A stretch of DNA of 64,000 bases from an uncultured Hormoscilla sp. (GCA_963921275.4 OZ001293.3:1824001-1888000); one strand, 5' to 3'. Shown: positions 10,951 through 52,768, counted from the stretch's first letter. The notes: generated by a model from the sequence alone, not told the origin. A program made the numbers and translations.

Positions 10951-13137
10951 GCGTTGGTGGCAAAACACAAGAGGGATGCGTGATGGGTGGAGGAATTTAT
11001 CTGATTCAGGATAACGACCAGCTAGTTGAAATGACAGAACAACCCTATGAATCGGAAGAAAGACTGCAAGAACTGCTGGAAAAATATCCTAACCTCTTGG
11101 CAGGAGACCAGATAGATAGAGCAACGCCGAGACGATGGTTGTTAATCTCACGAGAAGTAAAATTACCTCTGGAAGAGGATAGCAATGAACAATGGTCTCT
11201 GGATCATTTGTTTGTGGATCACGATGCAATTCCGACCCTGGTGGAAGTCAAGGGGAACAGCAATACTCGCATCCGGCGAGAAGCGATCGGTCAGATGCTC
11301 GACTACGCTGCAAATATGATCGTTTACTGGCCAGTTGAGTCAATAGTTAGCCAGTTTGAAGCAAATTGTAAGTCTCAGGATAAAGATCCCGAACAGGTAT
11401 TTGAGGAATTTCTCGGGGTTGATGCTGACGAAGAGAAGTTTTGGCAAAAGGTCAAAACTAATCTGCAAGCGGGAAAACTGCGTCTTGTCTTTGTCTCAGA
11501 TGAGATAGTGGCGGAACTGCGGCGTGTGGTGGAGTTTCTGAATGAAAAGATGGACCCGGTAGAAGTATTGGGAGTGGAGATTAAGCAATACGTGAGTGCG
11601 GAGGGTCTAAAAACGCTGGTTCCCAGAGTGATTGGTAAGACAACAGAAGCGCAGCAGAAAAAATCCAGTGCGACTCTGGAGAGAAGACGCTGGGACGAAG
11701 TCTCATTCTTTCAGGAATATCAAGTTAGACAAGGTCCAGATGAAGCTCAGATAGCTAGAAAGATATATGAATGGGCTAAGAGCCAAAAAACATTAGTGGA
11801 AGTTCAGTGGGGTACAGGAGACACCTATGGCGGGTTTGTTGTTTGGGTGTCGGAAGAACCCCGATCGGCTTCTGAGCTGTTCCAGGTGGGGATTAATGGC
11901 AGACTACAGGTATCCTCTAGCACCTATGCAGCCTTCCCACAATTTAATAGTAATGAAAAATGGATGGAACTGAGAAGTAAACTGAGTGTCATTGGTCTGT
12001 CCCTGCCGATATCTCCTACTGAAAGAAGATTGACAACTTTTCAGTTGTCTAATTGTTTGCAGGATGAATTTGCCCTGGGGCGGGTGAATTAGGGGTCGAG
12101 CTGGGAATCGCTTCCCAACCCTCCCTTTCGAACCGTGCATGCGGTTTTCATCGCACACGGCTACTGGTTAGTTGGACCTTGTCATTGGCAGGATTACTGG
12201 GGATTGCTCCCTTTGTCCCTCTTCTTATGCAGTTTTTCCCCTTTATGGTAGTCGATAGGACTGTTTCGTATCTAGCTCCGGAAGGTTCGCGGGGGGTATC
12301 CAGGAAACCACTTATACCGCTCTTTGCTAACATTGCCCCTGTCTCGTCATTAGGGGACTTTTCAAGTTTTACCCGGCTAGAGTTTTAGTCCATATTACAA
12401 TCTAGGATTTCTCCTGATTTTTGGTACGTATTAGGGATACTTCCACCCAAGATTTCCAACTATATCCGACCCACGTCTGCCGGTACATTCCTGCACCACT
12501 TATACAAGGAGTTACCCCTGTCCTTTGCTTCTTGGGCCATCTCTCTCCACATGGCTTACGCTTATCATCTAACTGGTCCCTATCTCCTGACCACCGGTCG
12601 ATAGTCGAGTAGTTATGGACAGCACACGTGGAGTTACTTCGTTCCCTGGTATCATTTCACGATGTTTTTAGGTCCCTGCTTTACCCCGGGAGCTACTTTG
12701 AGTGTGATGTTGGCCATATGCAACAGCCAACACTAGCTACCATTTCCTTTTTAGGCCAGCGTGTAAGCCTTCTTCCGCTGGTTACACATAACGAGGCTTT
12801 CACAGATTCGTTTTCCTAACCATGAGCATCTTTCCTAGCGGAGTTGCCGACTTTGGGCTGTCAGCTATCCTACATTTAAGTCCTTGCTCCGCACCACGGT
12901 GATGTCACTCCGCAGCACTAAGGACCGGTGTCACCCCCACACCTGGGGAGAGGGAATTTAATCCCCATGATGACCAGAGTTACCATATTGAGCCTGATTA
13001 TGATTAGTTTTGGTTCTAAACATTCAGTCCAATTTTGGCTCGGCTTTTCCGTGTTTGTACAGGTTAGGCCGAAACGAGTCGCACTACAAACTTTTGATTG
13101 GGTGGTTGAGCAAATCTTACCTTCATCAGAGGCGTAG
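10947..13137 (+). pseudogene. Putative PD-(D/E)XK nuclease-like protein whose 3' end is interrupted by an antisense group II intron
   Basis: LDHLFVD...LVEVK...GQMLDYA motif. Joining 12087 to 13085 gives ...LGRV-IQTFDWVVEQILPSSEA*. Confidence 0.65.
12088..13084 (-). ncRNA. ORF-less group II intron (IIB-like), copy 1
   Basis: 5' GTGCG; domain V AGCCGTGTGCGATGAAAACCGCATGCACGGTT; domain VI ending CTCGACCCCTAAT; clean removal restores the host frame; no RT ORF. Confidence 0.92.
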
Positions 13138-13190
13138 TCCGGGCGTCTCGCCTGTCCGAGGTAACTGACCACTGGGAACTGACACTCATT

Positions 13191-13436
13191 ACTAGGCGCT
13201 TTCGCGCCTGGGAAGCACTCTTCGTGCTTACTACGAACCACCGAAGCACTAAGGGAACTGCAAAAAATAAATTCTCCAATTTAAGGAGTTGACCTGCTTT
13301 TTTACTTCCCCTACTCCCTGCTCGGGTGCTCCCTGCTCGGGTGCTCCCTGCTCCGGGATTGGTGATTTTTTTATTTGGAAGTCCCTAAAGTGCTTACTAC
13401 GAACCACCGAAACACTCTTCGTGCTTACTACGAACG
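13191..13436. repeat. REP-like GTGCTTACTACGAAC cluster plus a 15-nt CTCCCTGCTCGGGTG tandem
   Basis: GTGCTTACTACGAAC occurs three times here and once inverted at ~63480-63525; the 15-mer occurs about three times at 13314-13355. Confidence 0.7.
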
Positions 13437-13443
13437 GGATGGA

Positions 13444-14660
13444 TTAATAGGGTTCGATGCGGGCCACAATACTGTAACTTTTGAGCTGTTGCACGAGTTG
13501 CTCCGCTTTCGACAGATTGATGAAGGCTCCAACTTGCATCACTCGGCGACCTCTGGAAAAACTCCGGAAGGCATCGGGAACGAGATCGCGCACCCGACTC
13601 TGTTCCCAGGGAGTGGCGGCCTCGACTACGACTCGATAGCGCAAACTTTGAGCTTAAGTGACCGGCGGTGGTGGTGCGGGAACTATGGGTGGCGGCAGGA
13701 CTGCTTGCCGATCGGGTCCTGGTAAGGGTGTTGCTGTAGCTTGGGAAGATGCAGGAGTTGGCACGGCGGAAACTAGCTGAGTGATTTCTTGAAAATCGAT
13801 CTTTCCACTGGTACGAGATGCGCTCAATTAATTGCCAAAAGCTGGGATATTATTGCTGGAATTGGCGCTAATGTCAAGTTCGCCATTGTTCTGAAAAATA
13901 TTGCCTCCCGCCTCATTCGCAGTTCCTAAGTTGGGATTGGCTGATCGCTACTAACCCATTATCGGCTATTCCCTACGATGGTATTGTTCCGCAAGACGGA
14001 TAAAGCATGAGCTTGAACGAGAATGCCGTCTTTATTGCCAGTGATGCGGTTGCCAATCAGCACTGGCGCAGCGGACTCAGCAATGTTGATGCCAAACCCG
14101 GTATTTTCAAAGTGGTTATCCCGCACCTCTGGTCCCGAAATGCCGTAGATTGTTATCCCATTGGCTCCATTTTGGACAAAGTAGTTGCCTGCGATCGCGC
14201 CTCCACTGTTGCCAGTCACGGAAATGCCATCATGGGTACTGCCAGTAAATGTATTGTCAGTTACCGTAACTGAGCTTGATTCAATCCACAAACCATATCC
14301 CCGTGGGTGGGGATTGGTGAGGGTCACACCAGCGATCGCGGCTTTGTTGGCTCCCAGAATCGTAATGTTTTGACGGGCAAAGGTGGGACTCAGGTAATAT
14401 CCGCCTCCCCGGATAATGATATCCTTGCCTTTGGTGGGCCGATCGCCCAAAATCGTCACTCCGGGTTTGAGGTGCAGGGGAAAAAATTCACCAGTCTCAG
14501 TGCTATAGATGCCTGAGGCCAATTGGATGACTGTGTCAGGCTGGGCTATTCTTAATGCTTGAGTAATGGTTTTCAATGGAGCAGTTGAGCTGCCATCGCC
14601 AGTGGCATCATTACCAGTAGCCGGATTGACAAATAACTGATTTCTCTCTGATTTGGTCTC
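13444..14660 (-). pseudogene. DUF1565 / parallel beta-helix protein, fragmented
   Basis: LFVNPATGND..GSSTAPLKTITQAL and beta-helix repeats; stop at 13959; separate C-terminal fragment VPDAFRS...MQVGAF. Confidence 0.75.
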
Positions 14661-14846
14661 AATATATGATTCACGTCGATCCTCCTGACATAGGAGTTGT
14701 TGATTTTTTCATGAGGACTTCCTGGTTTCCTTCTAACCCTTGATTTCGGGCATGCTAAAACCTAAAATCTACTAGCGGTGAGCGGAGCCGAACCGCCATA
14801 AGGAAAAGTTAACTATGATAACGAGCAAATAAGTGAGGATGTTCCG

Positions 14847-15929
14847 ATGGGGGATAGACATGAGGGAAATAGATTCGCCCAGTCGGCTATTTACCGGATT
14901 TTGGATGCTAACTTAGACCGCGCCCGCGAAGGTTTGCGCATTGTAGAAGAATGGTGTCGCTTTGGTCTCAATAGCGAACAGATGACAGAAGAATGTAAGC
15001 AACTGCGGCACTCACTAGCCTTGTGGCATAGTCGGGAAATTCGCTCAGCGCGAGATACTCCCTCTGACCCGGGTACTGATTTGACCCATGCCCAAGAACA
15101 ACGGCGTTCTGATATTGGACAGCTATTGCAGGCAAACTTTTATCGGGTGGAAGAAGCGCTGCGGGTGTTGGAAGAGTATAGCAAGCTGGATAATCCGGAT
15201 ATGGCAGCGGCGTGTAAGCAGATGCGCTATCGAGTCTACAGTCTGGAAAGTAATTTGTTGGCTTATCGGCGTCGTCAGCAGTTGTGGGCATCGCAGCTGT
15301 ATCTGGTGACATCTGCTTCGGAAAAGCTGTTGACTATTGTAGAAGCAGCTCTGCAAGGGGGGTTAACTCTGGTACAGTACCGGGATAAAACAGAGGAAGA
15401 TATGGTCCGGTTCGAGCAAGCGGAAAAACTGCGGGAACTCTGCACTCGCTATGAGGCATTATTCATTATGAATGACCGGGTGGATTTGGCTGTGGCGGTG
15501 GATGCTGATGGTGTTCACTTGGGACAGCAGGATGTTCCTATTGCTTTGGCCCGCAAGTTGCTCGGTCCCCAACGACTGATCGGTCGCTCGACTACTAACC
15601 CAGAGGAAATGGAACGGGCGATCGCTCAAGGGGCTGATTACATTGGGGTAGGACCAGTTTATGAAACTCCTACTAAACCGGATAAACCTGCTGCTGGTCT
15701 CGATTATGTTCGCCATGCGGCCCAACATGCTAAGATTCCCTGGTTCGCGATCGGGGGCATTGATGTGAATAACTGCAATGAGGTGCTGTCTGCTGGCGCC
15801 CAGCGCATAGCTGTTGTCCGAGCGATCGTGCAGGCGGAGGAGCCAACTTTAGCCACTCAGTATTTCCTCTCTCAACTGAGGAGTATTGAAACTCTTAAAT
15901 ATGTCAACAAGACCGTCGTGTCTTCTTAA
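14847..15929 (+). CDS. thiE: Thiamine-phosphate synthase (long cyanobacterial form)
   Basis: RILDANLDRAREGLR N-domain; QYRDK, MNDRVD, HLGQQD and FAIGGI motifs. Confidence 0.96.
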   Translation: MGDRHEGNRFAQSAIYRILDANLDRAREGLRIVEEWCRFGLNSEQMTEECKQLRHSLALWHSREIRSARDTPSDPGTDLTHAQEQRRSDIGQLLQANFYRVEEALRVLEEYSKLDNPDMAAACKQMRYRVYSLESNLLAYRRRQQLWASQLYLVTSASEKLLTIVEAALQGGLTLVQYRDKTEEDMVRFEQAEKLRELCTRYEALFIMNDRVDLAVAVDADGVHLGQQDVPIALARKLLGPQRLIGRSTTNPEEMERAIAQGADYIGVGPVYETPTKPDKPAAGLDYVRHAAQHAKIPWFAIGGIDVNNCNEVLSAGAQRIAVVRAIVQAEEPTLATQYFLSQLRSIETLKYVNKTVVSS

Positions 15930-16143
15930 TGAAACAGTTAAGATCCCCCCAAACCCCCCTTAAGAAGGCTTACAGGGGTAGGTTTTTTGCTTAACTGTCA
16001 AATATTTTCAAATATTATGCAAGCACAGCATGATTGTAGTATAATGATGATGTCGGCAGGTCCAAGGCATCTTAGAACTAGTAGTCTGTCAAGATTGAGT
16101 TGACAGATGAAGAACGGTATAGCAGTCTGGAATTAAGTAATCC

Positions 16144-16336
16144 GGCTCTTCGGTACAAAGCAATGGTATAATGTCTAAAAAAATAAGGTTGTAAGCCTTG
16201 CTGCGCAAGGCGAGGGAGCCCCTTAGCATACATTCAGGAAGGGAAAATGGGTTAATCAATTCGCCCCTCGCCTTACACTGCAAGGCGAGGGGCGGTTTTT
16301 AACTATCAATTTAGCGCTCCCAAGTACCGAAGACCC
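16144..16336. mobile_element. 193-bp ISL3-derived MITE
   Basis: Ends GGCTCTTCGGTAC / GTACCGAAGACCC match the ISL3 ends at 46547 and 47905; 8-bp TSD AGTAATCC. Confidence 0.85.
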
Positions 16337-16536
16337 AGTAATCCTTGTATCCGTTGCAGGGTAAGGGTCAGAATCAATAATGGGGAGAGATTCGAATCGG
16401 ATCTCGAGAAGATAATTATTAAGAATATCGGCTACCAACTTAAGCCGGGACAGTAAGTCTGGGTAAGGGATTCGACGGTTGTCTAAAAGATGACTGTCGT
16501 GGCAGAGGGAGTTCACCCATATGGTCTACCACCCAC

Positions 16537-17592
16537 TCAAATAAGTTGGGAAAAGAGTGTCCAAAGAGTCGGGTTCGCTGCCGTGGAGCCATCCGCTCGC
16601 CTGATGTCAAAATTGTGGATGACGGTGAGCACTGTTAACGTTTGAGCGGAAAAACCGCGCGAAGTATGATGGAGACGAGATAAATAACCATTGCGTCCTT
16701 CCACAGCTTTATAGGTACGTTGATATTTTGTACAGATCCAGTGTGCCCAGGACACCCACAGAAGAGCGAGCTATGGCTGCGCCACGCTGCGCGGTCGGTT
16801 TTTAGTTGTTGGGTAATAGGGTGGCTAATTAAGCGGTCATAGGCTTGCTCCGCAGCCCCCTGATAGGCAACTTTTCCTTCGCAATGTGTAGTTTGGTCTG
16901 CTTGTTGGTGCCAATAGGTCCAAGGTAGCAGGAGTTCGATAACCCACTGTTGTAAGGCCAGATCGTCGGTTTTGACCTTGAGCGCAAGGCTTTCCCTAAC
17001 ACCACCAAGCATGAATGCCTTGAGCAAAAGAGGGGATTTGTTGTTGGAAGCTATCAATGGCACTATTAGCTTTACTGGAGCCGTAGCGCCAAGCCAGGGA
17101 GCGCAACTGTTCGTTCTTGAGAATCAAGACTTAGCTCAAGCTTCTGCCACAATTGCCAGTTCCCGGTGGTGAGGTTGAATGGATGAATCCCTTGGGTTAT
17201 AGCATGGAGAGTCTGGTGATAGGTACTCTGGGCAGATTCATAGTCAAGCCGTTGCCGTGCGGCGCTGTTCGAGTTTTCCTTGAAGTTCGGCTCCAACCGT
17301 ATGGCTTTCAAGAATTCCTCCAGACTCTCGGCCCCTATTCCCTGTTTGATGCCGAAGTAATAGACTATCCCTAAGACCAACAGCTTTAACCAAGCTCCTC
17401 CCACCTGTGTCTCCCACCAAGATGATTCTGGATGCTTCCCTCGACGCGCTATCCCTTGTTGATGACGCTGGACACTGCTTTTGGATAGACCGGTGGCATT
17501 GGCAATCGCTAGTCAAGCTTTGGTCACCCTTTTCCTGGAGACCTTTGGCTACTAATGACCATCGTTCCCGTATAGTGAGACTCATCGTTCCC
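16537..17592 (-). mobile_element. Degraded transposase-like gene (DUF6399 type)
   Basis: Fragments in several frames: YQRTYKAVEGRNGYLS, LTVIHNFDIRRADGSTAA, KLLVLGIVYYFGIKQGIGAE. Confidence 0.65.
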
Positions 17593-17719
17593 GATTTGAA
17601 TATTGACAAGGGATACGATACCAATCCCTGTGACCCATAGCAGGGATTTTCCCTCATGTGATTGTTTATACCCATACTGGGATGAATTTCTGTCCCGCTT
17701 TACGCTGATAGCCGTAATG

Positions 17720-18698: not shown

Positions 18699-18832
18699 AA
18701 GAATTATAGCGGTTTTCACAAGGCGTGAGGCACATCCACGATCCCCCTAAATCCCCCCTTAAGAAGCTATGGCTTACTCACATCTTTCTTAACAATATGA
18801 AATCCTTACACCGTCTTGATTTGAGTACGAGT

Positions 18833-19008: not shown

Positions 19009-19881
19009 GGGCGTGTCATCAATTAAGCCATATTACAGCTGCCGCGAGGTAGATGGCACCCAAGAAATTGCGAGCCGTTTTATCGTAGCGTGTCGCCAGA
19101 GCCCTGTATTGCTTGAGTTTTTGGAATAGATTTTCAATTAGATGCCGCCACTTGTACATTTCTTCATCGTATTCTCTGTGTTCTGTGCGGTTACTTTTTG
19201 GAGGAATGACAGCCATCCAATCCGCCTCTTTCAGGCGCTCGAGCACACGTTGTTCCGCATCATAGGCTTTATCTGCAAGCAGCGCGCCAATCTCACCGAT
19301 TTTATCCAATAGCACGTCAGCGCCTTTCCCGTCGTGGGCTTGACCAGGGGTAAGATGAAATCCTGTGGGATTGCCTTGGGCAATCGCAAGTGGCATGAAT
19401 CTTTGTCGATAGTCCCCCTTTACTACGGCCTATGGCTTGGGTTTCGCACGTATCTGAGGGTGTTTTTTTTTGCACCCGCACGCTCGTTGATGGGCACGCA
19501 GGATGGTGGCATCAATCGCGGCGTATTCGTTATCGGCGTCTGAGGCCAAGACATCGAATACCTGCTTCCAAACTCCCTTTTCAGACCAACGGGTATGGCG
19601 GGTATGAACAACCCGAAAATCCCCAAAACACTCCGGTAAATCCCGCCAGGGAATGCCAGCACGATATCGATATAACACGGCAGAACACGAATAATCTATT
19701 GTTCTTGGCTGTAGCGCCTGGGTCACCCTCTTTACCAGGTAAAAGGTGTTCAATCCGTTCCCACTGGTCGTCTCGCAAGCCATAGCGTCTCATATCATGC
19801 CCTCTTGATTGTTATTGCTGGATAAGGACTCCATACCGTATCCATCTATTTCTGTCAAGCAATTTGATTGATGACACACCC
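19009..19881 (-). mobile_element. IS5-family (IS427-like) element with frameshifted transposase
   Basis: TIRs GGGCGTGTCATCAAT / ATTGATGACACACCC flanked by [23 protein letters not shown] and ATRYDK motifs. Confidence 0.92.
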
Positions 19882-26006: not shown

Positions 26007-26954
26007 TCAAGGGGTGGCGAGCATTTTTTTTGCATAGTTGGGGTCAAACGGTTTTCCCGACTTCAAGACCCCATAAGCCAGACACAAGAGCTTGTGCATG
26101 GCCGCACAAATAATGGCTCGCGCCCGCTTTACCCCTTTCCAACAGGCGATCGCAAAATGCCGGGCGCACAGGGTTAAAACGTCGAGCTGACATGGCCGGC
26201 ATATACAATGTTTTACGAAGCTTAGCATTACCGGTCTTACACAGGCGTGTTTTGCCTCGTACCGAAGAGCCAGAAACCTGCTGCCTCGGTGTAACCCCAG
26301 CATAAGCAGATACGAGACTCGCACTATCGTAAGTGTCAATCTCTTCGGCTAGTAGTTTAGCAGCCGTCAGTTCACCCACTCCGGGAATCGACAGGAGTAA
26401 CTCCTGCTGATGCTTCAGGTTCTCATGAGTATCTATTAGCTCAGTAATGAGCTGTTTGATTTGCTCAATTTGTCCATCGAGAAAAGTAATGTGCTCTTCT
26501 AACAACTGTACAACACAATCCTGCTTAATCAAGGAGTTAAGCCGGTTGACTTCAGTCTGGCGTAGACTTTGCACTGATTCCAGTTGTCGAATCAATGCTT
26601 GTAGTTGCTGTATTTCTGGTGGAGATGGACTCCAAGCTGGAGGTTGATTTTGTTCGCAATACTGAGCAATTAGTTGACAATCCCCTTTGTCCGTCTTATT
26701 GCGAGACAACTTGCTTTGACCAAAAGCCTTAATGCAAGCAGGGTTAACAATACTGACAGTGTGTCCTTGCTCATACAACCATTCAGCGACAGCTTCGCCA
26801 TAACGACCGGTTGCCTCGCTCGCAAGCATGAACTTGACCTACCTTCTGCTTAGCCAACCACTCACCGAGTTGTTCCATTCCTTCTAATGTGTTAGAGAAG
26901 ATTTTGTGCTAAGACTTGCCCTCTAGCAACAAAGCTACATCGAAAAAATCTTTA
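26007..26954 (-). mobile_element. IS110-family transposase pseudogene
   Basis: EATG, RNKTDKGD, LLSIPGVG, SGSSVRG and GNAKLRKTLYM motifs; internal stop and frameshifts; N-terminus replaced by an intron 3' end. Confidence 0.9.
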
Positions 26955-27023
26955 TTAGGGGTCGAGCTAGGAATCGCTTCGGTACCCTCCCGTTCGGAGC
27001 CGGACGTGCGACTTTCACCGCAC
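26954..27023 (-). ncRNA. Group II intron 3' fragment (part of domain V plus domain VI)
   Basis: GTGCGGTGAAAGTCGCACGTCCGGCTCC...CTCGACCCCTAAT; same terminus as copy 1. Confidence 0.85.
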
Positions 27024-27026
27024 TTT

Positions 27027-28282
27027 CTATTGCTCCCAGTCAATAGCAAAACATGAAAGAGCAAATCCGGTTTTATTTCTCTCCTGCCAACTGGTGTCTG
27101 GAGGAACTTTCCCATATAAATCAACTTGATATTCTGTTTCAGAGCTGACTAGATTGTCAGCCTTTACATAAGCAGTATCGAGAAGATATGCACTTTGCAG
27201 TAGTTGCTTTTCTGCTAGGTGAGCGTGGATAATAGGAGTCATTTTTCCATCTGAGGTTGTTGCGCTTGTTGTCTCGACGTTCCTTATTATATGCGGACAA
27301 TTTTCCAGAGCAAGTTTCCCTTAGATCGACTTTATAGCCAGTCCAGTTTGTATCTCATGAGCTTGCAGTTGCGCGGGTCCCATAAGAGATTCAATCGACA
27401 GTTTGTTGGGAGGTACTCCGATCGCGCTGCGCTGGGGGCGCAGCCATGTGCTTTCCTTTTGTCGCCATACTAGGCTCTCTGCTACAAAAGCCTATTGCTG
27501 CACCCAAACTTGTCGCAGAATTTCTACCCTATCCAGCCCTTGTAACTTTTGAGTAGTTGCCCAGTTATAAATAGCCTCTAAAATTAAGTGTCCGTCTGCA
27601 CCAATGGCTAGGGCTAATTCCTCTTGTTCTTTTTTTTCTATGGCTGCGCCACGCTGCGCGATTGGGTAATAGATATTGTTCAAACCTTGTTCCATATCGG
27701 TCAAACCAATCTGGAGTCACTCTTCGTAAGAAGCCATTCCGGAGCATGAGTGGCTAGTTCCCTATCGAGCATGGCGCTCCCGTTTCTCCTACTAGCTCCA
27801 AGGGGTTAACACATCTAATAGCTGCTCTTATCATGGGTGGCGTCACTACCTTGTGTGCCTCGAGAACGGAGCCAAAATTGCTCTCTCAATTTTGTCAGCA
27901 TTAAATCTAGTAGTTGATTTTCTTGTTTTTTCGCTATCAGACCCTCGCGAAATTCCGTCAACACTGTATAGTCAAAACCCTCCTCAGTTAATTCTAGGCC
28001 TAAAGCATACTTCCAATCAATACACCGAACCCACGGCATCAGCGGCTTGTCTATCTGGAACGACCAACGGCTTCCTGCATAATTGTAATTAGCGCTAACT
28101 TGGCTCTGTGACATTGCCGATTGTCCACATCTGGGCTCAAGAGACTCAAAGTCGTTATCTGTTTATATTTCTCCTAATTGTTCGTGCATTGTCATGTATA
28201 TGTTCCCAAAGGGAAACGATGCTTTCGCCACTGCGACTGTTTCTGGGGGCACAATCCATTGTAGTGAGGGATGAAGGGTCAT
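27027..28282 (-). mobile_element. IS1182-like transposase pseudogene
   Basis: VRCIDWKYALGLEL..GFDYTVLTEFR, ILRQVWVQQ and YLLDTAYV fragments in different frames. Confidence 0.8.
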
Positions 28283-32366: not shown

Positions 32367-37847
<5,481 letters not shown>

Positions 37848-38033: not shown

Positions 38034-38089
38034 CGGCTCTGCCTGGGAACGTAGCATTTTGACTGGAGATGTTCGCTGCCCCAAAGGTG

Positions 38090-41000
38090 TTAGATGACTG
38101 CTGATGACTGTCGGGGAAAGGGATCGAACCCGCGCAGGAATACTTCGATCGCACCACCAGTAGTACGGGTAGCAAAATCTCCTATTAGCGCCCCGTCCGC
38201 CGTCAGGTTATCACCTGTCAACCCGAACAAATAACGCCGGATCGTCCGAGCATCGTTTGGTTCTATAATCTGATTGCCATCGGCATCCAGCATGCTATTC
38301 CCTAATATCAGATTCTGAATGTTCGTGGCTCGATCGAGGAATGCTTCGATCGCCTGAGCACTGCTGCGTATGGCATTGTCCCCCACGAACTCCCCATTAC
38401 CAGTCAGATCTGCACCTGTCAATCCTTGCACGTAATTTAAGATCAGCTGCCCGTCCGTTCTCGCTCTCGTTGTCCCATCCAGGTCTACATCCAGAGTAAT
38501 CTCTGTAGGAGGTGGCGGTTCTCCTTGGTCGTTGTCAGTTATATTGACTTCCAGACTGTTGGTCCCGGCCTCCCCATCAATAAAGAAAACATCCGTGCCG
38601 TCGTACAAAGGATCCTCGCTATTAGCAATATGCGCAATTGTGTCCGTATGGGGGCCTTCTCCAACGCTGTCATCTACCGCCGCCACTATCACCGCTTGCG
38701 GTACTGAGAAGTTTGCTGGCGTGAAAGTCAGCTCCGATGGCGAGTTTACTGTTTGGTTTCCCGATACGATCGAGATTGTCACCTCAGAAGTTGGCGGCCC
38801 TGCCAGGGCCACTTCGTAACGATCGCCCCTTGCCCCCTCTGTCACATCTATACTTTCATCTCCCGTACTAATCAGCACCCCATCTTCATTAGCGATCGCC
38901 TGAGCCGTAATCTGATCTACGCTAATCTCGTTGTAAGCCGAGTCTACGCTCACCACATCAAAACTAATCGTGCTGATGCGGGTCTGAAGAGGACCGCTCG
39001 TTTACTGCGGTCACTGTAATCTCTTGCGGTTCATTGAAATCATTCGGAGTGAAAGTTACCGTCGCTGGGTCTACTGTCGTGTTCTCGTCCGTGTCGATCG
39101 TCACCTCCACAGGACCGTCCGGCTGGCTAGTTAGCACTAAGGAGAAGGTATCTGTAGCACCGTTTTCTACTACTGTCAGATCCTCCTGCGATCGAATCAC
39201 CTGGACCCTCGCCACATCGTTATCCGTGACCTCTACTATAATCGGGTCTATGGGAAAGCCGTCGTAATTTTCATCCTCTGCACTGGTTGCCGTCAGAGTC
39301 AGGGTGCTTTGGTGCGTGCCTTCCCGTTCCTCGTCATCGACTGCCGCCACTGTCACCGTTTGTGGTGTCGTTCCATTTTCTGGGGTAAAAACTAGACTCG
39401 TGGGGGCTACATTCGTCTCCTCATCTGATGCGATCGCTATTGTCACTGGCACAGATGGGAGAGTTCTCAAGGCCACTTCAAAACTATCCGTGGCACCACC
39501 TTCTGCTACTTCCAGGGTTTCTGCCGTTTCCATGATATCGATGCCGGCGTCATCATCTGCGATCTGGGCTATCACATCGGCGATCGCAATATTGTTGTAA
39601 CTGGGGTCTGCACTTACCGCTGTGTGAATTATCCGCGAATCATGAAGGCCTTCCACCTCTCCATCATTTGTCGCTGCTACCGTCACGAACCGGGGAATAT
39701 TCCAGTTGCCGCGAGTGAATGTCACCCGACTTCTATTCGTTAGAGATTGGAAGTCTGGGGCGATCGCCACCGTCACCGTCCCTTCCGGTTGAGTATTCAG
39801 GACGATGCTATAGCGGTCTACTCGACCCCCTTCCGCGAGTTCCAGTCCGCTTTCGTCTTCAATAATTGACACACCCTCAAAGGCTATCTTGCTCGCGAAG
39901 CCGTCTACGCTGGTTTCACCCGAAATGCCTATTGGGTCCGTTGCCTGCAAAGCTCCTGTTGTAGTAGTGAAGTTGGTTGAAGCCGTTTGCCCGGTAATGA
40001 ATGCTGCTCCCCTCCTGTCCAGATCTATAGCGAAGCCTGCGTCATTGCCATCGCCCCCCAAGTAGGAAGAATATAGCGCCTCCGTCCCTGATGGGTTCAG
40101 CTTCGTAACGAAAACATCACTCAATCCGCCGCCAAATTCCGACTGTGTTGCGTTTTCCGTGATTGGGAAGGGGGAGTCCGAGTCTTCTTGAGAAGATGTC
40201 GTCCCCACCACATAGGCCGATCCTGTGCTATCCACAGCGATGCCTGTAGCAGGCCGAGGCAAGGCAAAGTTTATCCCTTCATTGCCACTGCCTCCAATAA
40301 ATGTCGAGTAACCCAGGCGAGTTCCCCCGCCTTGGCTTTCCGGCCTCTCCACTATTTTGCTCACGAAAGCATCGAATTCACCGCCTTGGTATTCTTCCTG
40401 AAAAGCTCCCGGGGTTGTGGGGAAGTCTGTTGACTGGGTAATACCCGTGATGTATGGGTTTTCATCCCTGTCCAGGGCTATCCCGCCTGCGACCTCCTCC
40501 AGACTACCCCCCACATAGGTGAAGTATTCCTCTTCAGCGTCTTCATTCACTTTGGCCACGAACACATCGCTGCCATTGCCAAAGATCTGGGACTGCGCAG
40601 CCCCTGGAGTGGCCAAACCCCTTGACTCTGTCGTACCCGTGACGTATGCCACCCCATCGTCGGTCACTGCTACCCCTGTAGCTTCATCAAAGCCCGAACC
40701 ACCTATATAGGCAAAGTATTCCTGATTAGTGCCATCTGGATTTATCTTGGTGATGAATGCGTCCGTTCCCCCTGCTGGTCCAGTATCTTCTCCTGCCAAC
40801 CCCGTGGAATTTGTGCTACCCACAATGTAGGCATTTTCCGAAGGATCCACCGCGATCGCCAGACCTCTGTCACGACCCGTGCCACCTATGTAGGACGAGT
40901 AATCTAGACCTCCACCAGTGGGGTTTAACCTGAATACAAAAGCATCTTGGAGCCCCCTCCGAAACTATCTTGGAAATTGTTTATTTGAGCTAAATTTGTT

Positions 41001-42178
41001 GACAGTGATTCTCCCGTGACGTATACAGCTCCATTCAAATCCACTGCAATGCCATTTGCTCTTTCGAGATTCGGTCCATCCTGAATTACCGACCCTCCTT
41101 GAAACTGTTCGCCCGAGCCTATATAGGTCGAGTATACTTGCCCTGTTCCCTCCCTGTTTAGTTTCGTGACAAATATCTTTTCTGTGAAATTGACTTGTTC
41201 TGAGTCTTCAAATGTCAGTACCGTTCCCGGGAATAAATTTGACAGCGTTTCACCCGCGATGTATGCTGAGCCAGCTATGTCTACCGCGATCGCCAAACTT
41301 GCGTCATCTGCGCCGCTTTCCAGTTCTAATGGACTTGCTGGTACTGTTTCCCCAGTAGTTTCGTCAGTCTCTGTCGCCACCTCTAGAGTTCCGCCCAGGT
41401 AGGTCGAGTATTCCAACACTGGGTCAATCACCAGAGTATAGTTCGGATCGTAAGCTTCCACATCGAAGCCCACTTGCTTATTGCCCAGCAGCTCGTAGGA
41501 GCCCTTTACCTCCACATCTCCGGCGTCGTACTTGCCATCGCTGTTACGATCCTCGAAGATAAATGGCGCTGTTTCCGTTACTTTCCCCCAGCCGGACTTC
41601 TCTAATATCAGATTTCCCTCCTCGTCGATGCTGAGCCGATCGACACCGCTGTATTGGATCTCGATCTCCGAATAGTCTGCTCCCGGTGCTACATGAAATT
41701 CCTTTGTCAGCTTCCCTTCGTTTCCTGCTGCATCTGCCTCCCCCTTGAATATCTGCGTAATTCCTTTGTATACATTCTCATAGGCGATCTTGCCAAAGGT
41801 CTCCACATCTGTTATCGTCACCGTTTGGCTGGGGTTGTTCGGATCTGGGACGTTGATGAAGTTTGCTACCCCCTCTAGTCGATCCCATCCCGCGATGGTG
41901 GGGTTTGTTACGGCTCCCACTAGGCTGCTTTCCACCGTCCAGATTCTGGCTTCTGGTAGTCCGTCACCGTCCCAGTCTTTTTCTATAGCCGTATTGAGCT
42001 GAACCTTATCTGGAGCAAAGCTGAAGTTATAATCTTGGCCCTTCACCTCGAAGGCCCACTCATCAGACATCTGTCCCGCATTGGGAATAAATGCCAACTC
42101 CATCAGGTTTCTCCCATCTGGGTTGGTTACCTGTCCATTTTCTGCTGCTGCTACGTTTACTGTTCCCATCTTCCTCAC
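38090..42178 (-). pseudogene. Second SBBP beta-propeller / Ig-like repeat surface protein, split into three ORFs
   Basis: Same architecture as the downstream paralog; frameshifts near 40950 and 39000; C-terminal LDVDLDG / LDADGN dockerin-like repeats. Confidence 0.82.
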
Positions 42179-45899: not shown

Positions 45900-46446
45900 G
45901 CTCGCTCCTACACCGCTTCTCCATCATCATCAGGATCTGCTTTTGCAGGATACCCCGCTGCAAAAACATAATCTTCTTCCGCCGCTACTTCATTTAAATC
46001 ACCAAATTTTACTGGTTCATATCTTTATCTTTGTCTGGCAAATTCCAAAATAGCTAAATCATTTCGCCCAAATCTATTATCATTCCTGTGTAGCTCGATA
46101 TTCGTTGCCAGTGTATGTCCTGATCTTATACGAGTCTGATTTTTTCGCAACATGTTCATTCGTTAATACCGTATGATTTTGTTGCAAACAGATAATAATT
46201 CCCGAACATAACTGTTCCCTTCTGTCTCCGCTTCTAACTTGAAATGTTATTTTACGGGCTCTTTTATAGAGTTTCTCATAGCTTGAGTCTCCTTGAGCAA
46301 TAGGTCTCACTAATTTTTGAAGAATAAGTATCTAATTCGGGAGCTGCCGGATGTTTTTGCCATGACAAAACCCCTTGTTTAGTTACAACAGCTAATGGCA
46401 GTCATACTGCCCCAATCAGTATTGAGAATAGCGAATTTTTATTCAT
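45900..46446 (-). pseudogene. Trypsin-like serine protease relic
   Basis: SGIII..VLTNEHV, NDLAILEF and YVFAAGYP; stops and truncation. Confidence 0.7.
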
Positions 46447-46546
46447 TTTAGCTCCCCTTTTCTTATTCAATCCCAGTATAGTATGAGGTGTCTACTTATT
46501 ACCCTCTAATTGATTAACCGTTCTGGCAAGGAATGGGAAGAATTAT

Positions 46547-47905
46547 GGCTCTTCGGTACCTAGTTTGCTAAACTATCAAATAAATCCTCGTAAAATTCAA
46601 CCACAATTGTTATCCTTGAAGAGTAAACATATTGCTGTACTTGACTTGTAGCGGTTTTTATCCTTTACTGAACTTGAGGAAAAATTGAAAATTGAGTGAA
46701 ATCATCATGGCAGGACAACTCAAACTACTAACCGATTTTCTTAACATCCCAGATGTTAAAGTTATTCATTTCATACAGGATCCATCTCTAGGAATAATCC
46801 TCTCCGTAGCTAGTTTAAATTCTGAAGTAGCTTGTCCTCACTGCGCTCAAATGAGTCATAAACTTCACCAAAATCATTCAGATCTCATTAAAGACTTACC
46901 TATGAATGATCAAAATGTTTATTTACAGGTAAATAAACGACAAATGTGAAAATTGTTTAAAAACTTTTAGTGAGCCTTTGGGTTTTTGCGAATCAAAACG
47001 CAACTATACTAAAAGACTTGCCTCAGATATATTGAGTCAGGTAAAACATAGTAATATTAAAAGTGTTGCCGAAAGGACAGGGGTAAGTGAGTCAGAAATT
47101 GAAACTATTTTAAAGGATTTAAAAAACATTTGGTAGGTCAAAAACCTCAAGAGTTAAAAAGATATTGATGAAATTAGTTTAATAAAAAGACAAGGTAATT
47201 ATTGTGCGGTATTAGTAGATTTGGACAATAGTCAACTTCTAGCTTTAGTTTCTGATAGAAATCAAGAAGCTATTGAGAAAGTGCTGATGGATATAGAGGT
47301 TTTGGAAGGTATAGAAGAAGTTAGCATTGATTTGTCCTTATAAAAGTCTGGTAGAAAAATTAATGCCCAATGCTGATGTGGTAGCTGATAGATTTCATGT
47401 AATGAACCAGGTTCAAAAAGAATTAGACAATAGTCGTAAACAAGCAAAAAACGAGGTAAAAAAATGGATGAATCCGATAACTGCCAAACTAAATGCAATT
47501 AATCACAGTAAATATGTGCTACTTGCTAACTCAGTTAAACGAAGTTAAAAAAAGTAAATTATAAGAAATCAATAAATAATTTACAAAACCTCAAAAGATG
47601 CATGAATTAAAAGAGAAATTTAGAAATATTTTTGATGAAAATATTAATTGGTTAGATGCTTTATTAAATTTAGCGGTTGAAAAAATCAGCAGAACTTTTT
47701 CCATCAAGGTACAATTCGTCGCTGGTTAGTAGAGATAACAGCATATGCGGAGAAAAACTAATGGTATAGTAGAGGGAATCAACCAAAAAATTAAGTTAGT
47801 CAAACGGAGCGGATTTGGTTTTCGTAACCTAGACAATTTTGAGCTAAGATGTTTGTTATCTTTTCAAGATTAGCAATAGTTTAGCAAACCAAGTACCGAA
47901 GAGCC
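46547..47905 (+). mobile_element. ISL3-family element with degraded transposase
   Basis: TIRs GGCTCTTCGGTAC..GTTTGCTAAACTAT; 8-bp TSD AGAATTAT; CPHC, KDLP and VVADRFHV motifs. Confidence 0.93.
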
Positions 47906-48104
47906 AGAATTATTTGTCTTACATTCCCTATAACCGGCTACCAACGTAAAGCGGGACAAATTTGCGGTTGTGCGATCGGGCCAAATGCCTGTGGGCTGGA
48001 AGCCTTGCATCATGGGCTGTCCCGGCTTAAGTTGGTAGCCTCCCGCAGCATCCAGGATCGGAACTAAAGCAACTATCCAGAAAATGCGAGCATCTTTTAA
48101 GCCT

Positions 48105-48495
48105 CTGCATCGCACGGGATCCATCTCTAACAGAAGAGCAGCAGGAGAACCTGAAAATGATTACGATTCTGTGGCGAGCATTTACTAGAGTTGATTGAAA
48201 AGATTTTGTCAATGTCTAAAATAGATGCAGCCAGGATTGATCTGAACCTGAATAGCTTAGACCTGTATTATCCGATCGACTCTCTGGAAGAAATGTTTCA
48301 AAGGGACCATGGCTGTTGAGTGGGTAGAACAGCTAGAGCAAGCAGCGCTAGAATTGGATGAGGACGTCTTGACAAGCTGATGGAGCTTCTGGCGCAGGAA
48401 TTTGCCTCTCTGGTAAATTGCTTGTCGGATTTGGTGCAAACATTTAGGTTTGACCTCATGGATTTAGCTGAACAAGCTATTGCCAGTTATCAGTG
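48105..48495 (+). pseudogene. Hybrid histidine kinase relic
   Basis: RDPSLTEEQQENL...EHLLELIEKILSMSKI (HisKA-like) followed by EWVEQLEQAALELD; heavily deleted. Confidence 0.55.
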
Positions 48496-48758
48496 AACGG
48501 GCTGTGTCCCCCGGGTAATGCGATTAGCGCGCTGCGTCTCCTCTTTTGTGTGAATATGATGTCCCCCTCGCCGTGCGTCCGGGGGACATCAAGCTCCCAG
48601 GAGACGCAGCACCGAGGGACACAGGAAGTGTAGGGGGCCGAGCTCGTCCAGAGGGGGTTGGCAACGGTCCTATACAGTTGAGAGGAAATAATGAAATAGG
48701 CTTGACAAAGAAAAAATTGTAATATAGTAATAGTTAAGGGTTCAGGAGAGTAACTATT

Positions 48759-49100
48759 ATGGCAATGGATGTCCAGAGTGTAAAATATGGGATAGTCATG
48801 GTAACAGCGGGTTCCCGTTCGGAGGCAGAGGCGATCGCCTCCAGTTTAGTTGAAGCAAAACTAGCCGCATGTGTGAGCATAACCCCCATAAAGTCCATCT
48901 ACAGCTGGGAAGGAAAAATAGAATCTCAAGAGGAATGGCAACTGACGATCAAAACAGACTTAGGTCAATTTGCGGCCCTAGAAGCCCAAGTACTCCAATT
49001 GCACTCCTACGAAGTGCCCGAAATCATCGCCCTGCCGCTGGTAACCGGTTCTCAACCATACCTGGAATGGATATCTGCAAATGTGGTCGATGGCAAATAG
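48759..49100 (+). CDS. cutA: Divalent-cation tolerance protein CutA
   Basis: LVEAKLAACV, SIYSWEG and HSYEVPEII motifs; AGGAG RBS. Confidence 0.95.
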   Translation: MAMDVQSVKYGIVMVTAGSRSEAEAIASSLVEAKLAACVSITPIKSIYSWEGKIESQEEWQLTIKTDLGQFAALEAQVLQLHSYEVPEIIALPLVTGSQPYLEWISANVVDGK

Positions 49101-49160
49101 CAAGAAAAAATAGCGGCGTTGCACAATCACGGGATGATGAGCATAGTTGCAGAAGTTTTG

Positions 49161-50480
49161 GCTCTTCGGTACTTGGTTTGCTAAACTATTGCTAATCTTG
49201 AAAAGCTAACAAACATCTTAGCTCAAAGTTTTCTATGTTACGAAAACCAAATCCACACCGTTTTATCAATTTTAGTTTTTGGTTAATTCCTTCCACGATT
49301 AGTTGTTTTTTTCTCAAAATATGCTGTTATCTAAACTAACTAACGACGGATTGTCCCTTGAATTTTTGGAAATAAATCTGCTAATTTTTTTAACCATTCC
49401 GCTAAATTTAACAAGCCATCTAACCAATTTATATTTGACTCAAATATTTTCCTAAACTCTTCTTTAAGTTCGTGCATTTTTTGAATCTTAGGAAATTCTT
49501 TCTTGACTTCTTCTAATTTACTTTTTTGAACGTCAGTTATTTGAGTTGGCAAGTATTACAAATTTGCTGTGATTAATTGCATTTCGCTGTTTTTTTCTCA
49601 GATTCAGCCATCTTATTGACCTCTTTTTTAGCTTGCTTACGACTGTTGTCTAATTCTTTTTGAACCTGGTTCATCACATGAAATCTATCAGCTACCACCT
49701 CGACATTAGGGATTAATTTTTCTACTAAGCTTTTATAAGGACAAATCAATACTAACCTCTTCTATGCCTGAGAACACGTCTATTCCCCAATCCATCAACA
49801 CTTTTTCAATGGCTTCTTGGGTTCTGTCAGGGACTAAAGCTAAAAGTTGACTGGTGTCCAAATCTACTAACACTGCACAGTAATTACCTTGTCCTTTTCT
49901 CATTCCTTATTCATCAATCCCCAATCTTTTTAACTCTTGAGGTTTTTGACCCACTAATTCTTTTTTTAAATCCTTTAACATAGTTTCAATTTCTGACTCA
50001 CCGGTTTTTTCTGCAACACTTTTAATATTACTATCTTTTACCTGACTCAATATATACTCAGCCAGTCTTTTAGTATAGTTGCGCAAAAATCTAATTGCTC
50101 GCTAAAAGTTATTAAACATTTTTGGCATTTAAATTGTCGCAGATTTATTTGTAAATAAACATCTTGACCACTCATAGGTAAATCTTCGATTAAATACGAA
50201 TGATTTTGATGCAGATGATGACTCATTTGACCGCAGTGAAGGCAAGCCGCCTCCGAACTCAAACTGGCTACGGTGAGGACTATTCCCAGGGATGGTTCCT
50301 GTATGAAATGAGCAACTTTAATATCCCTGATATTGAGAATATCTGTTAGTAGTTTTAGTTGTGCATTGGAAGCCATGATAACTTTACCCCTTAATTTTCA
50401 ATTAACCCTAAATATTATTGAAGCATAAAAATGGCTACAAGTCAAGCTATTCAATAGTTTTCTGGTTATAAAATACACCG
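49161..50480 (-). mobile_element. Second ISL3 copy, inverted, with its left end missing
   Basis: Right TIR at 49161 matches 47905; N-terminus MASNAQLKLLTDILNI parallels 46692. Confidence 0.9.
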
Positions 50481-50486
50481 GGTCAA

Positions 50487-50936
50487 TTGTGGCGCTTTGA
50501 GATTAACCGGAACGGCCAAACAGTGCAGCGTCAATTGTTAGAAAGTCGCTGTTGTGAGTTTCCCTTTGTGCATTCCCGACGAGTGGGACGGCCTTACCGC
50601 TATCTGTTTATCGGTGCAGCTGATCGGGCGAGGGGAAATGCTCCCCTGCAAGCTATACTCAAGATTGACTGGATGTCAGGAGAACGGCAACTCTGGAGTG
50701 CTGCACCCCAAGGATTTGTGAGCGAACCGATTTTCGTTCCGCGCCCTGGTGCTGCTGAGGAAGATGATGGCTGGGTGCTCGCTCTGGTGTATGATAACGA
50801 GCATCACCGCTCTGATGTGGCGATCTTGGATGCCCGTGACTTGAACAAAGGACCAGTGGGGAGACTGCATTTAAAGCATCATATCCCCTATGGGTTGCAC
50901 GGTAGCTTTACTCCTGAGTGGTTCGGTCCGCAATGA
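50487..50936 (+). pseudogene. Carotenoid oxygenase (RPE65 family) C-terminal fragment
   Basis: CEFP, SEPIFVPR..EDDGW and IPYGLHGSF motifs; the N-terminal part is absent next to ISL3. Confidence 0.85.
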
Positions 50937-50971
50937 CATTGGCACTGGGCCATGATAGTCAATATTTGGGA

Positions 50972-51240
50972 ATTACCTGCGCTACGATGTAATATAAACG
51001 AGGGGCGATCGCTTCCTTTTATAATACATAAATTACAAATAATACAAAATATTTGAATTACGTGTACTACGATACAATATAGAAGGAAAGCGATCGCCTG
51101 GGTACAATAATACAAAATTTACAAATAAATATTTGAATTACGCGCCCTATAAAGTAGTACAAAAAGGGGATTAATAATACAAAATTTACAAATCCTACAT
51201 TTTTGATTACGTGCGCTACGATGTAATATGTATGCGATCG
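50972..51240 (+). repeat. Degenerate AT-rich ~70-85-bp tandem repeat, about four units
   Basis: Recurrent ATTACGTG.GCTACGAT..AATAT...GCGATCGC...TAATACAAAATTTACAAAT. Confidence 0.7.
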
Positions 51241-51834
51241 AAAGTAGTTGAATTAGTAAAGCAATTTATGCTCTCTCAACTGGTGAAATAGTCAGATATG
51301 AGCTTTGTTTTACCAACTGGTTTTGACCACACCCTAGAGCGTCGATCCATTAATAGGTAGTGGGTCACAAGTAGTGATTTTAGCGCCTGAGACAACTGTG
51401 GCAAGACCCCGATCGCGCAGCGACTGCGCAGTCGCCCGGCCTTGGCCACTGCCGCCGTTCCAGAACAGTATATCTCATTGGTCCCTCAACCGGGCTATAA
51501 GGGATAAAACCTTCAGAGATTCAGAACCGCTGTTGGTGACGGGCTGGGGAGACCAATAATGCAAATGTAACCAACTGAGCAGCCAAATGCAAGCTAGAGA
51601 TGAGCAAATTGAAAACCATCTCTTTTTGACGATGGAGAAGGCGATCGCTCTTTGCAGTAATATGGGCAAGAGCAGCAAAGGGACAAATATGCCCAGAAAT
51701 GCTACAATCAGTTGATCCCAAAAGATTAGTCGGAGCAGTAAATAGCAAATAATTAATCCTGAGTAGCTGTAGGCTAAGAGGGCGATCGCCTTTTTGAGCG
51801 ATCGGCAAATATTTATCTTACCTATGGGGAGATG

Positions 51835-52768
51835 GTGCGATTCGTTCAGGCGTAAACTGGCGACGGTGAAGTCTGGTCTGGTTTCATTTGCCGGATAACT
51901 CTGGTTATCATGGGGTTAAATTCCCTCTCCCCAGGTGTGGGGGGTCGAGGGTACTACCGGTCCTTAGTGCTGCGGGGTCACATCGCCGTGGTGCTCCGCT
52001 AGGACTTAAATGTAGGATAGCTGGCAGCCTAACCCAGTGACGCCGCTAGGAAAGATGCTCATGGTTAGAATAAGCGAACCTGTTAAAGCCTCGTTACATA
52101 GAACCAGCGGAATAAGGCTTATACGCTGGCCCAAAAGGGAAAATGGTAGTTAGTGTTGGTAGTCATCTATTGCCAGCATCGCACCCAAAGAACTCCCGGG
52201 GTATAGCAGGGGCCTACAAGCATCGAGAAATGATACCAGGGAACGAAGTAACCTCACGTGAGCTGTCCCCATTTGGACCAGTTAGATGTAAAGCGCAAGC
52301 CGCGAAGAGGAAGGATGTTCTAAGAAGCCAACGCCTGGGGTAATGCCTGGGATATGCAGACGTAGGACGGATATGGTAAGAAGCCTTTGGTGAAAGTAGC
52401 CCTAACACGTCGCAAAACTTAGGAGAAATCCAAAAGTATGAATATGGACTAGAGTCTCAGCCGGGTAAAGTTCAGAGCCCCGATAAATTGCCAGAATGGG
52501 GAAATGTTAGAGAAGAGCGGCTAGAATGGTTTGCTGAACTACCCTCCGCGATCGCGCAGCGTGCGCGCAGCGCATACCTTCCGGAGCTGAAATCATTAAC
52601 GGTCCAATAGGATTGACCATAAGGGGTAAAATTACAGAGGGTAAGGGGAATACGGGGTAACCTAATTATTGATGATGATATGCCTAAGGACAAGCCCCAG
52701 CGGTGAAAGTCGCAAGTCCGGTTCCCCTCTTGGAGGGTTGGGGAGTGATTCCCAGCTCGACCCCGACC
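51835..52768 (+). ncRNA. ORF-less group II intron, copy 3 (domain V degenerate)
   Basis: 5' GTGCGATTCGTT; domain I similar to copies 1 and 2; AGCCCCAGCGGTGAAAGTCGCAAGTCCGGTT; end CTCGACCCCGAC(C). Confidence 0.9.

Follow-up and report, generated by a model that had tools for sequence, protein, structure and literature searches.

ORF-less group IIB introns with diversified guide loops in Hormoscilla-type cyanobacterial genomes

Intron copies in a 64-kb Hormoscilla stretch

We analysed a stretch of 64,000 nucleotides from an uncultured Hormoscilla sp. (GCA_963921275.4 OZ001293.3:1824001-1888000), which as a whole is called the window here. It carries three full-length group II introns without an open reading frame (ORF) and a 5′-truncated fragment of a fourth copy (Table 1). 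The three introns are members of a large ORF-less family in the genomes of Hormoscilla-type cyanobacteria that live as sponge symbionts. A preliminary description of this DNA had proposed three introns of 0.83-1.0 kb that share domains I, V and VI (DI, DV and DVI), encode no reverse transcriptase (RT) and each carry an exon-binding site 1 (EBS1) loop matched to the adjoining 5′ exon. Delimitation placed the introns at the same coordinates, with lengths of 997, 835 and 934 nt. The sharing of all three domains held for copies 1 and 2; in copy 3, DV was recovered only in part, as one of its arms is altered and RF00029, the Rfam model of DV-DVI, did not match. In agreement with the proposed lack of an RT, the introns contain no RT/maturase Pfam domain and gave no tblastn match to an intron RT. 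Indeed, at 835-997 nt they hold in DIV no RT/maturase ORF of the kind that would mark an autonomous retroelement.

Table 1. Positions of the introns, their guide elements and other features in the window, and of variant domain V arms at further family loci (L numbers; see text). IBS, intron-binding site.
Feature	Position	Strand	Details
Intron copy 1	12088..13084	minus	997 nt; ORF-less group IIB, DV/DVI intact; GTGCGA start, RF00029, nhmmer 5′ end + DI core + DV/DVI
Copy 1 EBS1, TGCATA	12717..12722	minus	Pairs with IBS1 TTTGTA at 13085-13090: 4 Watson-Crick, 1 G-U, 1 mismatch
Copy 1 EBS2 segment, ATGTGTA	12783..12789	minus	Family EBS2 column block; 3/7 pair with own exon, poor
Copy 1 EBS3, A	12681	minus	Pairs with 3′ exon +1, T at 12087
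Intron copy 2	34488..35322	minus	835 nt; sense within DUF7948/SBBP repeat-protein gene; RF00029, frame restoration
Copy 2 EBS1, TGCACT	34996..35001	minus	Pairs with IBS1 TGTGCA at 35323-35328: 5 Watson-Crick, contiguous from splice site
Copy 2 EBS2 segment, ATCTAGA	35063..35069	minus	3/7 pair with own exon, weak
Copy 2 EBS3, T	34961	minus	Pairs with 3′ exon +1, A at 34487
Copy 2 domain V	34532..34563	minus	Canonical; RF00029 + consensus fold
Copy 2 DVI bulged A	34496	minus	Rfam alignment, consensus fold
Intron copy 3	51835..52768	plus	934 nt; intergenic, altered DV; GTGCGA start, DI core + DVI (nhmmer), no RF00029
Copy 3 EBS1, CATCTA	52164..52169	plus	Pairs with IBS1 GAGATG at 51829-51834: 5/6, all Watson-Crick
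Copy 3 EBS2, ACATAGA	52096..52102	plus	CATAG with CTATG at 51822-51826; 5/7 in fixed register, 5 contiguous Watson-Crick
Copy 3 EBS3, T	52204	plus	Pairs with 3′ exon +1, A at 52769
Copy 3 domain V	52693..52723	plus	Lower helix disrupted; AGCCCCAGCGG opposite GUCCGGUU
Relic of fourth copy	26954..27023	minus	70 nt, 5′-truncated: 3′ half of DV + DVI only
Variant DV arm carriers	window 52693-52723 (copy 3); L006 and L019 ~3125-3202 (minus); L001 ~4681; L004 ~2116, ~2348; L009 ~2276		
Paralogous giant repeat-protein genes	32367-37847; 38090-42178	minus	DUF7948, SBBP beta-propeller, Calx-like, RTX repeats
Transposase genes/fragments	19022-19783; 26047-26829; 27818-28114; 50050-50376; 63681-63971		IS4/IS5, IS110, DUF772, ISL3-type
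Truncated genes	50487-50933; 54858-55604; ending 61955		RPE65 fragment; flavodiiron fragment; PBP ORF

Each window intron begins with GTGCGA and ends with the family's DVI tail at these coordinates. The further family copies described below start with GTGCGA or GTGTGA, so the 5′-terminal GUGYG motif of group II introns is present, window copies included. At the 3′ end, for which the group II rule is AY, the terminal dinucleotide is AU in copy 1, CU in copy 2 and CC in copy 3 and in most of the further copies. The window introns share 74-83% identity across DI-DIII and diverge chiefly in DIV, which in copy 3 contains an insert rich in HIP1 (GCGATCGC) sites. A fourth trace had also been noted in the window, and this is a 70-nt DV/DVI fragment with 80-83% identity (blastn) to the 3′ ends of copies 1-3 that matches positions 20-88 of our nhmmer 3′ model. 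Flanked by transposase fragments on one side and an IS110 transposase gene on the other, it is a dead relic.

For copy 2, the host gene itself reports the splice sites. With the intron (35322..34488) removed, ORFs 35310-37847 and 33794-34474 fuse in frame into 1073 codons, and the junction falls at residue 842. The junction lies inside a repeated motif (NWDEPQIVAVQ/AVDDLLTEG, the slash marking the junction), and five tblastn alignments to paralogous or internal repeats cross residue 842 gap-free. Because both the frame and the repeat alignment are restored, the two splice sites are fixed independently of the RNA model. A 3′ splice site one base earlier was rejected, as it leads to a stop codon after four codons. 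From the coding sequence, copy 2 would have to be spliced for the host reading frame to be read, and genes such as that around 33.8-37.8 kb look split to annotation unless the intron is recognised. Copy 1 has no Pfam-supported host gene on its own strand. A plus-strand ORF (10947-12092) ends 5 nt inside the 3′ end of copy 1 and would be 16 codons longer without the intron, which suggests that copy 1 is an antisense insertion near the 3′ end of that gene. Copy 3 lies between genes, its neighbours being on the other strand, and no plus-strand ORF hosts it.

Guide-target pairing across the family

The EBS1 hexamers of the three window copies, and their pairing at 5/6 positions with the 5′ exon, were exactly as the preliminary description gave them, and the EBS3 nucleotide forms a Watson-Crick pair with position +1 of the 3′ exon in all three. 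The loop chosen as EBS1 is a terminal loop whose stem covaries at 8/8 pairs, and it was also recovered by a blind column scan (below). For any one copy, however, an EBS1 match is weak evidence: the share of all window hexamers that pair as well is 1.9% for the EBS1 of copy 1, 2.1% for that of copy 2 and 1.4% for that of copy 3. Together with the weak EBS2 of copies 1 and 2, this chance level is what could be said for the view that the three pairings are coincidental and the loop is not EBS1. A family-wide test is decisive.

Scanning a genome contig collection with an intron-specific 20-mer gave at least 22 further loci (L001-L022), and all matches listed, the window's own copies not being among them, fall in three Hormoscilla sp. 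metagenome-assembled genomes (MAGs). Copies at these loci were delimited with nhmmer models of the 5′ end, the DI core and DV/DVI, and their DI sequences were aligned; the window and the 22 loci together yielded 22 5′ ends, 35 DI cores and 35 DV/DVI matches. Of the 168 EBS1/IBS1 positions in 28 non-duplicate copies, 151 pair, compared with 86.5 ± 6.2 when exons were permuted (maximum 111; 0/20000 permutations reached the observed value). Left out of this count were L004:3846 (an orthologous duplicate, the same insertion as in L018), L011 (EBS1 region missing) and L004:1079. L005 and L020 each hold an outer copy that is interrupted; the EBS1 used for these two was that of L007, where the copy is intact and 100% identical. 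L013 and L015, possibly orthologous, were counted separately. The 28 copies carry 19 distinct EBS1 hexamers, bearing out the proposal of diversified guide loops, and the excess of pairing persisted when a single copy was kept for each distinct hexamer (19 copies; 105/114 vs 59 ± 4.8 permuted). It was lost when the EBS1 loop columns were slid by 1-3 positions (68-89/156 paired vs 139/156 in register). Adding L004:1041, with its 5′ end corrected, brought the total to 157/174 in 29 copies, of which sixteen pair at 6/6 positions, eleven at 5/6, one at 4/6 and one at 2/6, i.e. at least 5/6 in 27/29. The tabulation of EBS against flanks that had been suggested as a check was thus run across the window and the 22 loci and gave pairing well above the permuted level.

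In the blind scan, 25 copies were used to compare each variable DI column with each of the exon positions -1 to -18, with no knowledge of intron structure. The top ranks went to the EBS1 columns with positions -1 to -5 and to a second block with positions -9 to -13. This second block is EBS2 (CGUYA-NNNNN-RACCAGCG), where 124/196 positions pair in a fixed 7-nt register compared with 79 ± 5 for permuted exons (0/20000). Applied to the 3′ flanks, the approach yielded EBS3, a single column ∼36 nt 3′ of EBS1 (GGGGUA-N-A), which pairs with +1 in 19/20 copies, against 12.8 expected. The match extends to individual lineages: all five copies of the CACTCC lineage follow G-rich …G(G/A/T)GTG ends, and four of these are preceded by CTGG(A), matching EBS2. 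Coincidence as the source of the window pairings is refuted: permuting exons, sliding the register, scanning columns blind and the covariation of the hairpin stem all speak against it.

In subgroup IIB introns, EBS3 sits in a separate DI internal loop, whereas IIA introns use the delta nucleotide by EBS1, and the EBS2-IBS2 pairing is absent in IIC. Since EBS2 is present and EBS3 is separate from the EBS1 loop, the family belongs to subgroup IIB.

Ribozyme fold, recent copying and the proposed source of reverse transcriptase

The DV hairpin of group II introns has an AGC triad, a 2-nt bulge and a GNRA-type loop, and DVI follows it. Copies 1 and 2 match RF00029 above its gathering score of 40 bits (42.1 bits at 12088-12165 minus and 47 bits at 34489-34566 minus, respectively), while copy 3 gave no match even with the Rfam search relaxed to E ≤ 1. 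The Rfam check proposed for these introns therefore succeeded in the window for two of the three. Under the same relaxed threshold, no group II family covering DI-DIV matched in the whole window, and the hits comprised just RF00029, weak plastid D5 families and a chance snoRNA match. The 5′ arm of DV in copy 3 is changed to AGCCCCAGCGG, which creates two C/C mismatches, and DV is absent from its minimum-free-energy fold. As judged from this damage to DV, copy 3 is probably dead or splicing-defective. Variant 5′ arms of this type (CUCCU or CCCA) recur in the family, facing an unchanged 3′ arm with two to three mismatches in the lower DV helix (Table 1). One variant lineage (L006 and L019) is 100% identical at two guide-matched sites and so seems to have been recently mobile despite the DV defect. 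At another locus with a variant arm, L009, a DV/DVI trace at 2196-2276 (minus) lies ∼5 nt upstream of a 90-nt tRNA hit (2101-2190, minus).

Across the family, RNA structure has been maintained by compensatory change. DV/DVI shows changes on both sides at 9/22 consensus pairs, with 8/418 cells non-paired (19 distinct sequences), including covariation in mid-DV (GGAU/GUCC, GUGU/GCAC, GUAU/GUAC). The EBS1 hairpin has changes on both sides at 8/8 stem pairs and 1/176 cells non-paired (22 copies). Therefore, the family evolved under selection for the ribozyme fold. The branch point of group II introns is an A that bulges from DVI 7-9 nt before the intron ends; in agreement, a candidate branch-point A lies unpaired in CUCG-A-CCCC, 9 nt before the 3′ end, in both the Rfam alignment and the consensus fold (19 copies).

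The four traces in the window had been taken as a sign of a large genome-wide expansion, and the at least 22 further loci, with ∼30 further copies, show the expansion to be real. That copy number comes from 32 DI-core hits at the loci, with two split outer introns each counted once, and includes ∼8 copies beyond those on which the loci were centred. The window itself has three copies and a fragment in 64 kb. A density of ∼1 copy per 16-20 kb would mean some hundreds of copies in a 6-7 Mb genome, as a rough and possibly biased extrapolation. Delimited copies all measure 747-1161 nt; longer ones are interrupted by insertion sequences (IS) and carry no RT genes. One copy interrupted by an ISL3 transposase fragment, in L022, lies near an Rfam CRISPR-DR28 match (5559-5582; 36.6 bits).

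Copying has been very recent. In comparisons within single MAGs, the copies in L010, L016 and L017 are 99.9-100% identical across 783 nt, those in L006 and L019 100% identical across 1062 nt, and those in L003 and L008 99.9% identical across 1084 nt; in each set the sites differ and the flanks diverge exactly at the intron ends. A further case is nested. In L005 (3845-5643, plus) and L020 (same span, minus), the EBS1 hairpin of an outer intron is the exact site of an antisense insertion of another family member. The resulting composites (∼1.8 kb), at two sites whose flanks differ, are 100% identical across 1801 nt. The outer intron also occurs without the insert, in L007 (3303-4176, minus), again at 100% identity. 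The IBS1 and IBS2 of the inner intron are the antisense of the outer EBS1 region, and the simplest reading is that the inner intron homed independently into two outer copies. Movement of the composite as a unit is less likely, since the antisense insert destroys the outer EBS1 hairpin. These sequence relationships indicate that very recent insertions were guided by RNA, and the presence of near-identical copies at different guide-matched sites argues that an RT was available in trans.

Segmental duplication, recombination or carriage by IS elements would offer a DNA-level route to the same distribution, and in a genome filled with IS elements such repeats are substrates for recombination. However, identity ends exactly at the intron ends, and the guide loops are complementary to their own flanks far above the permuted level, which DNA copying would not yield. 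We consider this route highly improbable. In our preferred explanation, which we hold to be likely, these are non-autonomous ORF-less group IIB introns that proliferated to guide-matched sites by RNA-guided reverse splicing with an RT supplied in trans. In each copy, the guides EBS1, EBS2 and EBS3 are complementary, respectively, to IBS1 (the final ∼6 nt of the 5′ flank), to IBS2 (about -9 to -13) and to IBS3 (nucleotide +1 of the 3′ flank). Copies would reach their sites by reverse splicing into DNA followed by reverse transcription, so that spread would comprise retrohoming plus some ectopic retrotransposition. The RT/maturase would most likely come from an ORF-bearing relative elsewhere in the genome; in the DNA studied here this enzyme is hypothetical. 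The copies are presumably spliced.

Several observations weigh against this explanation. No RT/maturase Pfam domain was found in any of the 56 window ORFs, nor in the eight ORFs inside long family copies; the ORFs of three over-long copies, considered as RT candidates, proved to be ISL3 or helix-turn-helix transposase genes. A tblastn search with a 575-aa Nostoc intron RT against the window and the 22 loci (∼240 kb) gave a best E value of 2.6. The RF00029 gathering score is reached by just 2/4 window and 12/31 locus DV/DVI traces, and many family copies are degenerate, truncated or IS-interrupted. As for the guides, EBS2 pairing in window copies 1 and 2 is poor (3/7 each) and the locus copy of L008 pairs at only 2/6 EBS1 positions. 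Finally, the host gene of copy 2 shifts frame ∼700 nt downstream of the intron (near 33.8 kb) and its paralogue (38090-42178) is broken: it falls into three ORFs and contains an in-frame stop near 40950-40976. Selection for splicing of copy 2 is not assured because of this frame change and the broken paralogue, and the host gene may itself be decaying.

Most ∼925-nt copies share a common DIV with GGAGAAAUCC and an ATG a few bases later, followed at once by a stop, and the DIV of shorter copies looks like a further deletion of this form. No protein-level ORF remnants were found in DIV by tblastn with the Nostoc RT in the window and loci. The search for RT-encoding relatives, likewise proposed beforehand, returned only short DI or DV matches in the collections searched. 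By blastn, copy 2 (first 623 nt) and the inner copy of L005 matched just a 53-nt DI segment in Nostoc and a DV/DVI segment in Chondrocystis among plasmids, while copy 2 matched 36-39 nt of DV only in Escherichia coli genomes; no close RT-bearing relative was present in these plasmid and E. coli genome collections. The one RT-bearing intron there with any DI similarity to the family lies on plasmid pn1 of Nostoc sp. UHCC 0926 (L023; NZ_CP117772.1, 764071-771124), where the likeness is the 53-nt DI match at 85%. Its ORF encodes 575 aa with RVT_N, RVT_1, GIIM and HNH domains and is followed by DV. Resemblance does not extend beyond that one short stretch of DI, which places the Nostoc intron outside the family, and its RT protein is unmatched in the window and loci. 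The same plasmid region has two DV/DVI hits on opposite strands (2983-3058, minus, and 3813-5633, plus), one of them behind the RT/maturase/HNH ORF; the record is unannotated there.

The lack of an RT across the ∼240 kb searched could alternatively mean that the family is a fossil, i.e. that it spread in the past and that the RT has since been lost from a decaying symbiont genome, leaving immobile copies that are unspliced, self-splicing or dependent on host factors. The broken DV of copy 3, the 5′-truncated relic at 27 kb, the several IS-interrupted copies and the passing of RF00029 by just 14/35 DV/DVI traces would all fit, as would a window rich in IS fragments and truncated genes. However, in each of four sets, copies at different sites that fit their guides share 99.9-100% identity, and loss of the RT since such recent copying would be a coincidence. 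Helices have also been maintained by compensatory changes. We therefore regard a fossil family as unlikely, and favour introns that are served in trans. A bolder version of that explanation would place Hormoscilla-type symbionts among the bacteria with the heaviest group II loads, of the order of hundreds of introns, nearly all ORF-less and guide-diverse and driven by very few RTs or one, with DV-defective lineages compensated in trans. This version is more doubtful still than a fossil family. If it is true, the mobile lineages with mismatched DV would be candidates for natural in-trans compensation of a ribozyme, a step towards a shared splicing apparatus.

The remainder of the window is bacterial and cyanobacterial in character, with dense ORFs, HIP1 sites in the stretches read and, outside one AT-rich stretch, a G+C content of 39-52%. 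Pfam annotation found housekeeping genes among many IS fragments and truncated genes, and no tRNA genes were found in the window. The transposase fragments and truncated genes (Table 1) suggest a decaying, IS-ridden genome. Other features were observed in passing. The AT-rich stretch (46001-48000; G+C 0.34) has few ORFs, and one adjoining ORF that was tested had no Pfam match. A leucyl-tRNA synthetase ORF (2332-5385, minus) encodes 1018 aa, and typical bacterial enzymes of this kind are shorter. Two adjacent Uma2-family paralogues (putative restriction endonuclease-like; 55820-56656 and 57164-58057, minus) lie between flavodiiron-type genes.

Comparison with known intron expansions

Hormoscilla lives as a filamentous cyanobacterium in symbiosis with Dysideidae sponges, and its genome has been estimated at 6.2-6.8 Mb (PMC6520454). 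Our literature search found no paper covering both Hormoscilla and introns, and in a term search of the main text, the two Hormoscilla genome papers made no mention of reverse transcriptase or retroelements.

Related patterns are known from other cyanobacteria and from organelles. In Trichodesmium erythraeum, a filamentous marine cyanobacterium, 10 of the 17 introns spliced in vivo lack an ORF (Pfreundt & Hess 2015, PMC4649490). As in Hormoscilla, ORF-less introns lie there within protein-coding genes, presumably served by trans-encoded maturases; splicing in Trichodesmium is documented by transcriptomics, whereas the Hormoscilla-type introns are known here as sequences. The highest count in a survey devoted mostly to RT-bearing introns, 101 per genome, belongs to the oscillatorian cyanobacterium Arthrospira platensis; the survey describes expansions of chloroplast-like (CL) introns in this and other cyanobacteria and finds obligate endosymbionts to be heavily loaded as well (Miura et al. 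2022, PMC8919778). The Hormoscilla-type family resembles Arthrospira in its large group II expansion; unlike the figures of that survey, in the consulted passages of which Hormoscilla does not appear, its copy number is extrapolated. Euglena chloroplasts have group II/III introns of which many are degenerate and ORF-less, served by very few RTs (PMC2882425). Many degenerate ORF-less copies are a shared feature, but the Euglena introns are organellar and far more reduced, whereas most copies here keep all six domains.

The closest parallel is Thermosynechococcus elongatus, with ORF-less TeI3 and RT-encoding TeI4 introns (Mohr, Ghanem & Lambowitz 2010, PMC2882425). By the count of that paper, its 28 introns include 8 that bear an ORF and 17 ORF-less ones derived from an ORF-bearing one; they form six families with diverged EBS, most copies occupy well-matched sites, and ‘driver’ RTs mobilise introns in trans (PMC2882425). 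The likeness is one of pattern, that of a cyanobacterial ORF-less family with diverged EBS lineages at matching sites. The two differ in that T. elongatus has 8 ORF-bearing introns, whereas no RT-bearing member was found among ∼33 Hormoscilla-type copies. EBS diversity is also greater here, with 19 distinct EBS1 hexamers compared with six T. elongatus families. Unlike in T. elongatus, the nested insertion is antisense and so not removable by splicing, and the host is of a sponge-symbiont lineage instead of a thermophile.

For the spread of introns and their dependence on common splicing machinery, bacteria offer no better model than ORF-less expansions that share an RT. The phenomenon is already described in T. 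elongatus. What is new is the Hormoscilla-type family; this second case, apparently of greater size and guide diversity, comes from an obligate symbiont that is uncultured and whose genome is decaying. We consider it of moderate interest for its size, guide diversity, symbiont setting and unexplained DV variants, and its ∼30 natural guide/target pairs on one ribozyme scaffold should be useful for working out IIB targeting rules.

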